Below, piece after piece: positions 15,001 to 24,000 of a stretch of DNA of 64,000 nt. The position numbers are program-made. Numbering within the stretch: the first letter of the stretch is position 1; every line of letters begins with the position of its first letter. Location of the stretch: the NCBI GenBank assembly GCA_021808485.1, contig JAKBBN010000001.1, positions 18,799 through 82,798 of the forward strand. The letters are read 5' to 3'. Origin of the DNA: Planctomycetota bacterium (GTDB taxonomy: Bacteria > Planctomycetota > Phycisphaerae > WQYP01).

Positions 15001-18000
15001 GCATCCGCATGGGCGCCAAATTCAAACAGGAACATCGCGAGTTGGGCATTGATACCCCGCTGGGGGCCAATGCGCTGCTTCTCACCCGCTTCCACGGCCA
15101 TGAGGCGCTAAGCCGGCCGTTCGAATTCCAGTTGGATATGCTTTCCGAAAAGCCGGACATCAACTTCACGGACATTCTGGGCAAATCCGTCACTGTGTCG
15201 CTGGCCGGTGAGTCCGGATCGCTTTCCACTGTTTCATCCGTGCGCTATTTCAACGGGCATATTTCCACCTTTGAACAGACCCATAGCGAAGGCAATCTTT
15301 ACTATTACACCGCCACCATGGTGCCGTGGCTGTGGTTCCTTACCCGGCGACGGGACTGCCGCATATTTCAGAAAAAAACGGTCCCGGATATTGTCCAGCA
15401 GATATTTTCCGACCTCGGGTTCTCCTCGCTGGTGGATAACGCCCTTACCGCAAGCTATCGCCAGTGGGATTATTGCGTTCAGTATCGTGAAACGGATTTT
15501 GATTTTGTATCGCGACTGCTGGAAAATGAGGGCATCTATTACTTTTTCAAGCACGATAAGGATTCCAGCGGCAACGGGACGCATCAACTGGTCCTTGCCG
15601 ACGGTATTTCCGCCAGTACGCCCATTCATGGCGATTCCACGATAAGCTATCTCGGTCCGGACCGGGCCCCCAAAGGGGTCTATATCCGGGATTGGAAAAT
15701 GCAGCAAACGCTGCAATCCGCCAATTTCATGCTTAATGATTACGATTTCACCGCTCCCAAAAAGTCCCTGCTTGCCTCCTCCGCCAATACATCCGGCGTT
15801 GTCAGCCAGACCAGCCACCGCGTCTATGATTATCCGGGCGGCTATACGCAAACCGGCGACGGCGGCAATTATGTTCAGGCCAGAATGCAGGAAGCACAGT
15901 GCGGCTTCGCCACCGCCTCCGCCGTCTCCAATTGCCGCAAAATGCAGGCTGGGTTCATGTTCACGCTGGCGGATCACCCCGTCTCTTCCATGAACACAAC
16001 CTATCTGATCAAATCCGTGGACTATGACGTCCGCAACGAGAATTATCTTCAGTCCCAGGCCGAAAAGGCCCGCACGGACGCAACCTGCAGGCTCGGGGCA
16101 TTTCCATCCAGCCAGCAGTACAGGCCGCCGCGCGTAACCCCCAAGGCCGTGGTGCGCGGTCCGCAGACCGCCGTCGTGGTGGGACCGTCCGGGGAAAAAA
16201 TTTACACGGATTCCTACGGCCGTGTGAAAGTGCAGTTTTACTGGGATACCTACGGTGCATCGGATCAGCATTCTTCCTGCTGGATGCGCGTATCGCAATC
16301 CTGGGCGGGAGCGCCCAACAATGGAATTTCGTGGGGGGATATGGCCATTCCACACGTGGGAGATGAAGTGATTGTGGATTTTCTGGAAGGCGATCCGGAC
16401 CAGCCCCTGGTGACCGGCAGAGTGTACAACGCGGATAACATGCCCCCGCAGGATCTGCCGGACAACAAACATAAACGGATCATGCGGGATGATTACGGCA
16501 ACCAGATCATCCTTGACGCCACGCCCGGCGATGAACACATTCGCATTTCCAGCCCCCATCATAATTCAGACCTGCAACTGGGCAGAAGCGTAAGCATGAA
16601 CACCGCCAGCAATTCCTATAACTGCACCTACGGCAACAATTGGTCCGGCACCATCGGCACACAGGGCGAAATGGTGCTGGGCAACGAAGTTGCGATCGCC
16701 GGCGGCGGCTATGTTAACGCGAAGGCCGGCTTCGCCTACAACATTACAATCGGCGCGCAATACAATATTAACGTCGGCTACAAATGCGAAGCGGACCTCA
16801 CCGAAACAATTACCTGGCATGACGGCGATACCGACACCGTCGGCAAAGATGACACCACCATCACGACGGGCGGCACGCTATGGCTTATTGGCGGCGACCA
16901 GGGGGCCAAGGCCACATCCACCGCCACCTCAATCGCAAAGCTGGATCATTCCGGCGTTGACATTGAAGTCGGCCCGCCGAAAACCATTACACCGCAGGGG
17001 CTTGGCATCGGCATTAAGATAGTCGGGGCATTGGCCGCGACGTTTCCGCTGGCCGGAATGGGGTTGATGGCCGCGGGAGCCGCCGTGGGAACTCCAGCGC
17101 CGGATGCCAACACCTTTGTTTCCGGCATCAGCGGTTCTTACACCGGCACGGACCCTGAAAGTTCCTGGATGGACGATGTCGGTCTTGCCGCATACGGGAT
17201 CGGACTCGTGGCCAGCGCCGTGTTCTACATCTGGCTGAAGCTGGCGAAAGACACCCTGAAGGCCGGTTCACATGGCGCCAGCGCGTTTGCCAGCCTGAAA
17301 ATAGATCCGCAGGGCAATATTAAGCTCTGTTCCGAAAACGGCGCGATTGACATTAAAAGCACCGCCGGTTCATCCTACATCAAACTTACGCCGGCCGGCC
17401 ACGTGATAACCAACGCCCCCAATGGAAACGCTTCCGTAATGGGTTCGCAAGTGAAAATCAACGGAACGCAGGGGGTTAAGATTAATGGAACCGCCATACA
17501 GGTTGAACCCTGAAGTGCACGGGTGTAACCCACCCCCGCACTCAATCAACCTGCCTGGTCATGGCGCTTGTGCGAGCTGTTATTGAAAGTCACCAACACT
17601 ACCAATCTCCCCTTCGCTCCGCTGGCCGGAAGATACAACTTCCCGGGCCACTCCATGACACTCATTGCCAAAGGAACCTATTCCATCGCGCCCGGCAAGC
17701 CGCCCGTCGCTTTGCCCAAACAGCCCTTTCCCACCGGCGATCAGTACTATCCGGATGATGAGGATCAAACCGGCCCGCCCCGCTATGAATCGGACTTTGC
17801 GTTTTATAAGCCCCGTGCCGACCTGCTGCTGGTCGGCGCGTGCCATCCGCCGGGCGGCGTGCCTGTTCCCATTTGCCAAGCCCTCTTCCGCGTGGGCACA
17901 AAATCCGGTGCCCTGAGCGTCATTGGCGAAAGACGCTGGGAAAAGAAGTTTCTCAGCCGCGCCGCCACCGCCCCCCAGCCCTTCCGCCGCATGGAATTGC

Positions 18001-21000: not shown

Positions 21001-24000
21001 AAACTTCATCGGCGCCGATCTTCACGATGCCAAATTCGAATCCATGAATCTTTCCCAGGCGCAATTCACGTCCGCCGATCTCACCGGCTGTCGATTTGTA
21101 AAAGTGCAGCTCGCCGCGGCCGCCTTCACCGGGACGAACCTTTCCGGGGCCAGCTTTAGCTTCGCCGATCTGACCGGGGCGACCCTTGCCGGCTGCAAAC
21201 TTTCCGGCGCCGGTTTTGAAAATTGCCGCCTGAATACCGCCAAACTCTCCGGCGCAACGCTCCAGGGCGGACATTTGTCCAATTGCTCGCTGGAACAGGT
21301 TGATTTCAACGGAATGAATCTGACCGGTTGTTATTTCGCAGAAGGCCGGCTCAACGGCGCGAATTTTTCCGGTTGCGATCTGACCCATGCGGATTTTTCC
21401 GGGGCTTCCCTTCGCGGCGCGAATTTCAGCCGAGCCGTCCTGCATGAAACCATTTTCTCCAAAGCGGATCTGACCGGCGCCGATATCTCCGGCAGCACGA
21501 TGCAGGACTGCCAGATGGCCGGCTGCATCATCGCCGGGGTGGACCTGCGCAATGCCCGCATCCACACCACGGATTTCAGGGCCGTCGATTTCACCGGAAG
21601 CAAATTGGGCGGCACACATTTCATTAAATGCGGCATGAAGCAAACCCTGTTCACCGGGGCCGCCGCGCCAAACTGCGATTTCACCGATTCCGATCTTGAA
21701 AAAAGCCGCTTTTCACGGGCTATTCTGGATGGCGTGAACCTCGGTAAAACCAACCTTAAATCCGCGGATTTTCAGGGCGCCTCCATGGACGGCATAAAGG
21801 CGCAGTTCGCGGATTTTACCGCCGCAAACCTCGGCAAAGCACGGCTGCGCAATGCCGATCTGCGCTGCACCCGCTTTGAAGATGCCCGTCTTGATGCGGC
21901 GGATTTCTGCTCCGCCCGCATGGAACGCGCGGATCTGACCCGCGCCGGCGCCGCCGGGGCGCTGTTCCGCCAGGCGGATCTGCCTTACGCCGTCTTAAGA
22001 TACGCCACGCTTAATAACGCGGATTTCACCGCCGCCCGCCTTAAACAGGCCGATTTGCACCGCATCGTTGATCTGAATACAAACTGGACCGGCGCCGATC
22101 TTGAAAATGTACGACGCACCGATGCCGACCTTGCCGCCGCCGAGGATTGGCAACCACCCGAACCCGATCATCCCGCTGATTAAATAAGGAGACTTCCTAT
22201 GCCCATGGATACCCTTCACCGCCCGGCCGCAGCCGCCGACCGGCATTTTGCGACCGCCCAAGTTGTTTCCCGATCCGGCGATGCCGTGATTGTTCGCTTC
22301 CCGGATGACCCGGCGGACCGTGAATTCGCCGCCACTCCCGCCATCGCCGATCCGGAGGCCATCTCCCCAGGCCGCAGCGTGCTCGTCGCCGGGGATGACC
22401 GCCATTCCCTTTTTATCATCGGCATCCTCGCTGCGCCCCAACCGTCGGCGCCGTTGCGGCACAAACTTCCGGACGGCGGCCATGTGGAAATGCCCGCCAC
22501 TTCCGCCGACAGCCTTAAAATATTCACGCCGACCGGGCAAATCATTCTGGAATACAGCCCCTCAACCCTTTGCACCCGGGTGCACGCCGGCGCCGGCGGT
22601 CTGGAGTTTTCCGCACCGGATGCGGATATCACCCTCCGCTCCGGAAAACGCCTGAACCTGCAGGCGGACTCGGTTCAAATACAGGCCCGCAGCCGTGTGG
22701 ATATCGGCATTGTTCATGTCCTTCGCGGGGTTCTTTCCCGTATGCTGTTACAAGATCAAACCGCCGCGATTCATTCCCCGCGACTGCAAATGCAAACCGC
22801 CGAGTTGGACATCAATGCGGATAAAACCACGCTCGCCGGCGATGACCTTTCGCTGCAAACGCAAAACACCCATTGCAAAACGGGCCGGGCGGAGTTAACG
22901 GCGGAAACAATCATCACAAAATTTCAAAACGCCTACCACCACGCCGAAGAACTGTACCAGTTATGCACGCGGCGCCTGCGGACGGTGGTCCGGGACACAT
23001 GGCATTGCCGCAGCCAAAACACCTACCTTTCAACCCGCGAAGATTTTAAGGTCAAGGCGGATCAGATTCATCTCGGCTGATTTTAAAAAAAGGAGTTGCA
23101 TAATGTTTCCCGCATCAAGCAAAGGTGGCGGAGTTTGCATGGGAACGCCGGATGTCTGCAAAACACCCTCACCCGCAGGCCCGGTTCCTGTGCCGTATCC
23201 CAACATCGGCAATCTGGCACAAGCCCAGAAAACCTCCACAAAGGTTAAATTCGACGGCAAAGAGGCCGCCAATCTTAACACCCAAATGTCGCAATCCCAG
23301 GGGGATGAAGCCGGCACGGCCGGCGGCGTGGTATCCGGCACAAACATGCAGACAGTTGCCTTCAAAAAAGGCAGCATGAAAGTAAAAATTGAAGGCCAGC
23401 CCGCCGTCTATCTCACGTCCATCACCGGTCATAACGGCTCCAATGCCAATATGCCCGCGGGTGCACAAATTGCCCCCAGCCAGGTCAAAGTTCTGGTAGG
23501 TTGAGGCCCCACTCGCGCCCATGCCGGCGCCCACACCCCCGTCGCGACCTTTCACCCATTGCGCCGCGACCGGCTCACTTGCCCGCTCCCGCCACACCGC
23601 GCACCAGCTGCTCCAGCATCACATGGCCCAGCCGCGGGCGCTGCCGCACTTCATCCGATGCCGATCGGCGCATGGCCAAAATCAACGGCACCCACCGCGG
23701 TCCCGCGGCCCTGTCCGCATCCGCAAGCCGGCCAATTATCTGCGATACCCGGGCCTCCAGCCGCACACAATCCACTGTTTCCGCGGATGAATTACCGCAA
23801 TGCTCCGGCGGACTGGTAACCAGGTATTCCCGGCACTCCACCGGCCGCACGCTGTAAATGGAACAGGATTCATTTTCCAGAAACGGACATGCAATCCCCA
23901 GTTGAAAATAGCGCAAGCCAAGCTCATGCCTTTCCCGCGATCCCATTTCACGCGATTGCAAAAGCCTGTCCAGCATTCCCGCCGCCTGCAGTTGCTCCTG

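Follow-up and report, generated by a model that had tools for sequence, protein, structure and literature searches.

RESULTS

The window analyzed here is a stretch of 64,000 nucleotides (nt) from a Planctomycetota bacterium (assembly GCA_021808485.1, contig JAKBBN010000001.1, positions 18,799 to 82,798 of the forward strand). At positions 17568 to 23504, it carries four genes on the + strand, directly behind the vgrG gene (15009 to 17513, +) of a type VI secretion system (T6SS). They encode a DUF2169 protein that ends in a pentapeptide-repeat domain, TvpAB (tagAB, 17568 to 20162); a protein of pentapeptide repeats only, TvpB (tagB, 20180 to 22183); a DUF3540 protein, TvpC (tagC, 22199 to 23080); and a small PAAR-like tip protein of the TagD/Paar1 type (23103 to 23504). 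We consider it likely that these genes constitute a Class III Tvp accessory system (tagAB-tagB-tagC-tagD), which would serve in the cytoplasm as a chaperone for building the VgrG-PAAR tip of the upstream T6SS. The original prediction from this DNA ended the unit at 22183, and the DUF3540 and DUF4150 genes that follow belong to it as well. Intergenic gaps across the unit from vgrG to the PAAR gene are 15 to 54 nt, with 54 nt between vgrG and tvpAB, 18 nt between tvpAB and tvpB (counted to the start at 20180), 15 nt between tvpB and tvpC, and 22 nt between tvpC and the PAAR gene.

TvpAB is 864 amino acids (aa) long, or 859 aa from an alternative TTG start at 17583. Residues 29 to 317 (17652 to 18518, +) match DUF2169 (PF09937, the TvpA domain) in Pfam at E = 1.4e-85, with 287.7 bits against a cut-off of 25 over profile positions 5 to 294 of 294, and in a sequence search of the PDB this part matches the crystal structure 8vth_A, a "DUF2169 domain-containing protein" (E = 2.2e-14). 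The C-terminal domain, at about residues 563 to 850 (19254 to 20117, +), matches the pentapeptide-repeat families PF00805 (E = 1.6e-45) and PF13599 as well as repeat proteins in the PDB. Full-length homologues number more than 395, and those listed all share the architecture; their alignment shows three conserved parts, in which the DUF2169 domain is joined to the repeat domain by a Pro/Glu linker and a middle region that is itself conserved. TvpB (667 aa), whose open frame spans 20159 to 22183 and is started by the source gene callers at the ATG at 20180, matches PF00805 in 18 stretches at E = 1.2e-103. The Pfam matches thus bear out the original prediction of an N-terminal DUF2169 domain fused to pentapeptide repeats and followed, directly after vgrG, by a second all-repeat protein.

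To quantify the repeats, we used a register-aware pentad count and compared it with shuffled sequences, which gave 2 to 5 pentads and 21 to 29 at most. TvpAB has 52 in-register pentads at residues 579 to 844 (2 in shuffles), and TvpB has 103 in three blocks, at residues 61 to 136, 197 to 237, and 273 to 658. Because shuffling leaves so few, the repeats are real and far beyond chance. They had been described as almost a kilobase of nearly uninterrupted repeats, a figure that suits only the number of residues, since the ~155 pentads of both proteins comprise ~775 residues but ~2.3 kilobases of DNA. Nor are they nearly uninterrupted: ~560 nonrepeat residues precede the repeats in TvpAB, the boundary between the two open reading frames (ORFs) intervenes, and TvpB has a 58-aa nonrepeat N terminus and gaps at residues 139 to 195 and 240 to 270. 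The proposed right-handed beta-helix fold does follow from the Pfam and PDB repeat matches. Pentapeptide beta-helices have four pentads and about 4.8 Å per coil. With about 52 to 56 pentads, the TvpAB repeat domain would form about 13 to 14 coils, and helix lengths estimated from the pentad counts are ~65 Å for TvpAB and ~125 Å for TvpB. Neither protein has a hydrophobic segment fit for a transmembrane helix or a signal-peptide-like N terminus.

TvpB is present here in a long form. Its 667 aa compare with 335 to 356 aa in Burkholderiaceae (356 aa in Burkholderia glumae, PMC8747328; 335 aa on Caballeronia grimmiae plasmid p2), which amounts to ~360 extra N-terminal residues of repeats. Residues 365 to 659, numbered from the 20180 start, are collinear with the whole 335-aa C. 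grimmiae protein, including its nonrepeat C-terminal tail. In all 80 related loci, collected in a scan of one genome per species, TvpB is 580 to 810 aa long. Assignment of TvpB to the Alr5209 family was rejected, as its 189 bits against a cut-off of 125 are summed over seven repeat stretches of a 113-position model and do not represent a true equivalog match.

TvpC (293 aa) matches DUF3540 in Pfam (E = 4.2e-18). Its sequence search of the PDB gave chance matches only (profilin, E > 0.1), and the fold was therefore taken from a structural model built from 17 homologues (predicted local distance difference test [pLDDT] score, 68.5), in which a beta-barrel at residues 18 to 78 is followed by strands. 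We count TvpC as a DUF3540 protein with a predicted OB-fold and beta-prism, resembling VgrG without the gp27 part, on fold evidence of moderate quality. At E ≤ 1e-3, a search with the TvpC profile retrieved 2,114 of 1.84 billion cluster representatives. The module is common. One protein, P0369 (6,182 aa), has 28 stretches that match TvpC profile positions 132 to 234 (E = 9e-54) and resembles a giant protein made of repeated beta-prism-like segments.

The PAAR-like protein (133 aa) matches PF13665 (DUF4150/Tox-PAAR-like) in Pfam at E = 6.7e-38, has no effector extension, and shows the PIPY motif, in the form PVPY, at residues 29 to 32. It is 49% identical to the DUF4150 protein of Caballeronia. 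Among Planctomycetota relatives (loci L001 to L014), it is 92 to 96% identical, while its neighbors in the same loci are far less conserved, at 42 to 46% for TvpC, 56 to 58% for TvpB, 62 to 67% for TvpAB, and 57 to 68% for VgrG.

The spike protein that the module would serve is a VgrG of 834 aa, with Pfam matches to Phage_GPD (E = 2.2e-96), Phage_base_V, and T6SS_Vgr and an NCBIfam match to TIGR03361 (E = 1.6e-160). Beyond the last Pfam VgrG match, it extends for ~300 residues, and within this C-terminal extension lies a hydrophobic two-segment insert at about residues 664 to 749 (16998 to 17255, +). Kyte-Doolittle analysis places the hydrophobic segments at residues 664 to 682 and 724 to 742. 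In an AlphaFold2 monomer model (30 homologues; pLDDT, 66), beta-prism strands run to residue 655 and resume at 761 to 802, with helices of low to moderate pLDDT at 665 to 691 and 716 to 749. Inspection by eye of 30 aligned VgrG homologues reveals a common succession in which two hydrophobic stretches flank a variable polar loop, with basic residues after the second stretch and then a beta-rich tip. The VgrG of Caballeronia has G/A-rich hydrophobic stretches too.

Across the related loci, 35 of 66 VgrGs, mostly the longer ones, have a hydrophobic segment after residue 500 at a 19-residue hydropathy threshold. In 40 complete nonredundant loci, VgrG length correlates with the length of TvpAB (Spearman coefficient, 0.69) and of TvpB (0.74). 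Median lengths for VgrG, TvpAB, and TvpB are 856, 874, and 679 aa where the hydrophobic segment is present and 750, 746, and 615 aa where it is not. Independent contrasts on a DUF2169 tree give r values of 0.62 to 0.63.

The nearest relatives of the module are in Planctomycetota and Phycisphaerales metagenome-assembled genomes (MAGs), at 65 to 67% identity. The order vgrG-tvpAB-tvpB-tvpC-paar is found in nearly all of the ~80 loci long enough to show it, which come from Planctomycetota, Verrucomicrobiota, Acidobacteriota, Gemmatimonadota, Desulfobacterota, Ignavibacteria, Latescibacterota, Nitrospirota, and Gammaproteobacteria. A plasmid collection held a single full-length TvpAB relative, in Caballeronia; its Ralstonia match is an orphan island of Class I/II type without tssJKLM. 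Variants occur. TvpAB is split into a DUF2169 part of ~590 aa and a repeat part of ~320 aa in three MAGs, one unclassified and two from Latescibacterota (L021, L040, and L047); a Planctomycetales locus (L075) has no TvpC match and PAAR-like ORFs of 370 to 384 aa; and some genomes (L003 and L063) have two vgrG-tvp modules in tandem.

Upstream of the module, the T6SS genes from tssB through vgrG are contiguous and run in a single direction (5059 to 17513, +). By their Pfam matches, they are tssB (5059 to 5559), tssC (5615 to 7117), hcp (7234 to 7734), impE/tagJ (7878 to 8798), tssE (8746 to 9282), tssF (9284 to 11152), tssG (11116 to 12156), and clpV (12178 to 14961), followed by vgrG. On its upstream side, the cluster is bordered by truD and a gene for a GGDEF protein, and on its downstream side by a permease gene. 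No homologues of TssA, TssJ, TssK, TssL, or TssM were recognized in the window with Pfam and NCBIfam, and no second vgrG is visible within it. The claim that the cluster has no canonical toxin or immunity gene holds within the reach of the same two databases. GC skew is -0.12 to -0.24 at 22001 to 44000, compared to about -0.05 to -0.09 before 22 kb and about 0 after 48 kb; the change sets in close to where tvpB ends.

Three further ORFs on the + strand follow the PAAR gene. They encode a soluble protein of 646 aa (24702 to 26642), a lipoprotein of 177 aa (26692 to 27225), and a protein of 1,435 aa with one transmembrane segment at residues 247 to 265 (27274 to 31581). None has a match in Pfam (E ≤ 1) or NCBIfam (E ≤ 0.1) except for a subthreshold FGE-sulfatase match of the 1,435-aa protein (E = 0.022). 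The trio is kept in order in loci of Planctomycetota, Pirellulales, and Verrucomicrobiae (L006, L007, L008, L012, L014, and L076). An Ignavibacteria locus (L057) has Fha, a PP2C phosphatase, a Ser/Thr kinase, and TPR/CsgG-like proteins in its place. In view of this gene content and of the position, which is that of tssJ-K-L-M in Burkholderia, the trio could be a regulatory module or an unrecognized membrane complex. Between the PAAR gene and the trio, on the - strand, lies a gene for a 251-aa CxxCxxCC protein (23575 to 24330; PF03692, YkgJ type, zinc- or iron-chelating), which occupies the same position in contigs of the same organism (L085 to L088).

DISCUSSION

To place the four genes behind vgrG, we compared them with T6SS accessory systems described in other bacteria. 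The features that characterize a Class III Tvp system at the sequence level are all present: a DUF2169 domain, its fusion to repeats, a separate TvpB, a DUF3540 protein, a small DUF4150 protein, and a long vgrG in front. The original prediction had presented the module as unexplained, but the names tagAB and tagB date from 2007 and a mechanism was published in 2026. In Burkholderia, the T6SS-5 genes are ordered tssB-tssC-hcp-tssE-tssF-tssG-clpV-vgrG-tagAB-tagB-tagC-tagD-tssJ-K-L-M, and TagAB-5 is needed for secretion of Hcp-5 "but not as an effector" (PMC6335564). DUF2169 proteins were shown by Sachar et al. to act as chaperones of PIPY/DUF4150 tip proteins, with ~37% of DUF2169 genes in a "synteny type C," where DUF3540 and a repeat protein accompany the repeat fusion (PMC11883445). 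The new names TvpAB, TvpB, and TvpC and the designation Class III come from work on Serratia marcescens by Monlezun, Earl, and Coulthurst (EMBO J 2026), where the occurrence of TvpA in Planctomycetota was already noted (PMC13373197). The module therefore is one more example of a widespread system that was known before and has recently been explained.

The closest likeness is to the Class III system of S. marcescens Db10 (TvpAB, SMDB11_2247; TvpB, 2248; TvpC, 2249; and Paar1), in which the same four proteins are encoded in the same order right after a long vgrG. Shared with it are the DUF2169-repeat fusion, the repeat-only protein, the DUF3540 VgrG mimic, the small effector-less DUF4150 PAAR protein, and the want of an obvious separate toxin gene; unlike in Serratia, the VgrG here has a clear hydrophobic two-segment insert and not just a hydrophobic C-terminal tail. 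The Burkholderia T6SS-5 cluster (tagA/B-5, tagB-5, tagC-5, tagD-5; BPSS1504 to BPSS1507; in B. glumae, bglu_2g07420/07410) is collinear as far as tagD, except that impE/tagJ is extra here and absent from the published gene table (PMC6335564). Beyond tagD, Burkholderia has tssJ-K-L-M, whereas this locus has the three conserved ORFs without a family match. TagAB is similar in size, at 878 to 896 aa in Burkholderia and Caballeronia compared to 864 aa here, while TagC has 222 aa in Caballeronia against the 293 aa of TvpC, and the C terminus of Burkholderia VgrG-5 carries a domain dedicated to membrane fusion. Class I/II DUF2169 chaperones (Agrobacterium Tap2/Atu3641, Pseudomonas aeruginosa PA0097, Vibrio parahaemolyticus VP1398, and 8vth) have the same domain, which binds a DUF4150/PIPY PAAR-like domain and shields it for loading onto VgrG. 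They differ in being single-domain proteins that lack the repeat extension, TvpB, and DUF3540 and in serving toxin-fused PAAR domains.

How such a module may work is suggested by the Serratia system. TvpAB, TvpB, TvpC, and Paar1 are each required there for firing, seen as Hcp secretion, through the VgrG1 spike; TvpAB and TvpB copurify with VgrG1 and Paar1; and a TvpC-TvpAB-TvpB-Paar1 precomplex forms, in which VgrG1 then replaces TvpC, the complexes with TvpC and with VgrG1 being mutually exclusive (PMC13373197). Serratia TvpC was modeled as a VgrG mimic with an OB-fold and beta-prism but no gp27, and in the modeled precomplex TvpAB wraps the tip and TvpB fastens like a seat belt (PMC13373197). 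By analogy, the DUF2169 domain of TvpAB would here mask the small PAAR-like protein on its hydrophobic side, and a TvpC trimer, with its OB-fold and short beta-prism but no gp27 part, would offer the PAAR protein a surrogate platform. The rigid beta-helices of TvpAB and TvpB would then close around the tip as a cage, or seat belt, to form the precomplex. VgrG would subsequently replace TvpC, giving a VgrG-PAAR-TvpAB-TvpB complex without which baseplate and tube would not assemble and the system would not fire, and the repeat proteins would remain in the cell. These steps have been shown or modeled for Serratia and partly shown for Burkholderia and Vibrio. For the present locus, they are inferred from homology, the four genes in the same order, and the TvpC model, with the geometry of the cage taken from the literature.

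Several points weigh against this assignment. All interaction and secretion data come from Proteobacteria, whose proteins are 30 to 50% identical to these or less, and the TvpB here is twice the size of the one behind the seat belt model. The Pfam match of TvpC covers only the C-terminal half of the DUF3540 profile, and its BLAST similarity to the DUF3540 protein of Caballeronia is not significant. TvpC and VgrG are presumed to be trimers but were modeled as monomers, with mean pLDDT values of 66 to 68, and the helices of the VgrG insert reach only 35 to 61. The Tvp spike of Serratia is one of two, whereas the window shows a single vgrG, and the "alternative spike" setting may therefore not be the same here. 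Finally, the signs of the independent contrasts agree in only 24 to 27 of 40 cases, so that the length covariation rests on few evolutionary events; we therefore take the correlation as suggestive, and in that sense it supports the view that the repeat proteins physically ensheathe the VgrG tip and hints that the insert may be the membrane-active payload.

Among the roles listed in the original prediction, that of adaptor or chaperone matches the experiments on homologues (PMC13373197, PMC6335564), while a DNA-mimic effector finds no support in family scores, charge, or size. According to the latter proposal, TvpAB and TvpB would be secreted cargo of the Qnr/MfpA type that poisons gyrase or other DNA-binding proteins in target cells. 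The same right-handed quadrilateral beta-helix is indeed predicted, the PDB matches include Qnr, MfpA, and AlbG-type proteins, no recognizable toxin/immunity pair is found in the cluster, and repeat-bearing type III effectors exist (PipB2 and SopA, low-score matches here). However, the likeness to Qnr, MfpA, and AlbG reflects a common repeat type at the level of the repeats only, and the genomic and functional context differs. NCBIfam scores are 69.0 bits for TvpAB and 133.3 for TvpB against a cut-off of 240 for Qnr (penta_rpt_Qnr) and 57.4 and 113.8 against 360 for MfpA. The type III pentapeptide effector families were likewise rejected for TvpAB/TvpB, at 94/161 bits against 354 for PipB2, 80/158 against 274 for PipB, and 22/44 against 326 for SopA, and the NCBIfam matches to DotG and similar families are at repeat level only. 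A DNA mimic requires a strongly acidic surface, but the repeat domains, judged from sequence, each have a net charge of -2, over 304 aa in one protein and 390 aa in the other (~-0.5 to -0.7 per 100 residues). At 864 and 667 aa, the proteins are also three to four times the size of Qnr and MfpA (~180 to 220 aa), one of them is fused to a PAAR-chaperone domain, and their length covaries with that of VgrG. Hcp secretion itself depends on the homologues, a phenotype of assembly rather than of an effector, and they were never found in Serratia secretomes (PMC13373197, PMC6335564). Given the low family scores, the near-neutral repeats, the lack of transmembrane or signal segments, and the genetics of homologues, a DNA-mimic effector is very unlikely.

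Two other explanations retain the link to the spike. The repeat proteins might be a permanent sheath or extension of the spike that is fired with VgrG and PAAR rather than a chaperone released beforehand, a role that rigid beta-helices of ~65 and ~125 Å would suit and with which both the scaling of their length with VgrG length and the copurification with VgrG1 in Serratia agree. A cage around the PAAR tip would blunt the spike, though, the same proteins assemble on TvpC, which is unable to nucleate an Hcp tube, and secretion of TvpAB and TvpB was never detected in several secretome studies of Serratia (PMC13373197), all of which makes a fired sheath improbable. Somewhat less improbable, but still unlikely, is a checkpoint or space-filler function, in which the bulky repeat proteins would fill the baseplate cavity to satisfy a "loaded spike" check when the PAAR protein is small and effector-less or would arbitrate between spikes. 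This hypothesis was raised by the Serratia authors, who found that deletion of tvpAB raises the activity of the other VgrG pathway (PMC13373197), and the PAAR-like protein here is small, at 133 aa, with no effector domain. Against it, no second vgrG is present in the window, and the hydrophobic DUF2169-PAAR interface, together with the complexes lost in deletion mutants, indicates real stabilization. A space-filler function and a chaperone function are not mutually exclusive.

If the module is an assembly chaperone, the question arises of why the cage should be larger here, with its long TvpB and a 293-aa TvpC. We infer that this may be due to the long C-terminal extension of VgrG with its hydrophobic insert, which would need shielding in the producer cell. 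Among candidates for the missing effector, the insert may also be the best, and its action would be on target membranes. Membrane depolarization has been linked to Serratia VgrG1 and membrane fusion to Burkholderia VgrG-5. A tentative extension, possible but short of probable in our judgment, is that in this branch of Class III systems the client of the cage comprises both the small PAAR protein and the VgrG insert, which is embedded in the beta-prism just below the tip. VgrG would then be a membrane-active effector, working through pores, depolarization, or fusion, and the growth of TvpAB and of the double-length TvpB would have accompanied that of the insert, so that it stayed soluble and inert in the producer cell. 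Our literature search found nothing specific on a VgrG-embedded transmembrane hairpin or on a Planctomycetota T6SS membrane complex. The Eag (DUF1795) chaperones, which are mentioned in PMC13373197, provide a functional likeness only, in that, before firing, they cover the hydrophobic helices of a protein carried on the spike while it is still in the producer cell. They are of an unrelated fold and family and act on PAAR or Rhs effectors, not on VgrG, and the analogy depends on our reading of the VgrG insert.

For annotation, our results mean that the four genes should be regarded as one T6SS spike-assembly module and not as orphan pentapeptide and DUF proteins or a candidate DNA-mimic toxin. 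They also point to Class III Tvp as a standard part of T6SS clusters far beyond the Proteobacteria, in Planctomycetota-Verrucomicrobiota, Acidobacteriota, and others, and usually larger than the form that has been studied. If true, our reading of the VgrG insert would give a structural explanation for the VgrG-associated depolarization of Serratia and the VgrG-5-dependent fusion of Burkholderia. Should both the insert and the covariation of cage size hold, the purpose of the big repeat cage would be explained, and VgrG would be the effector where none seems to be present.

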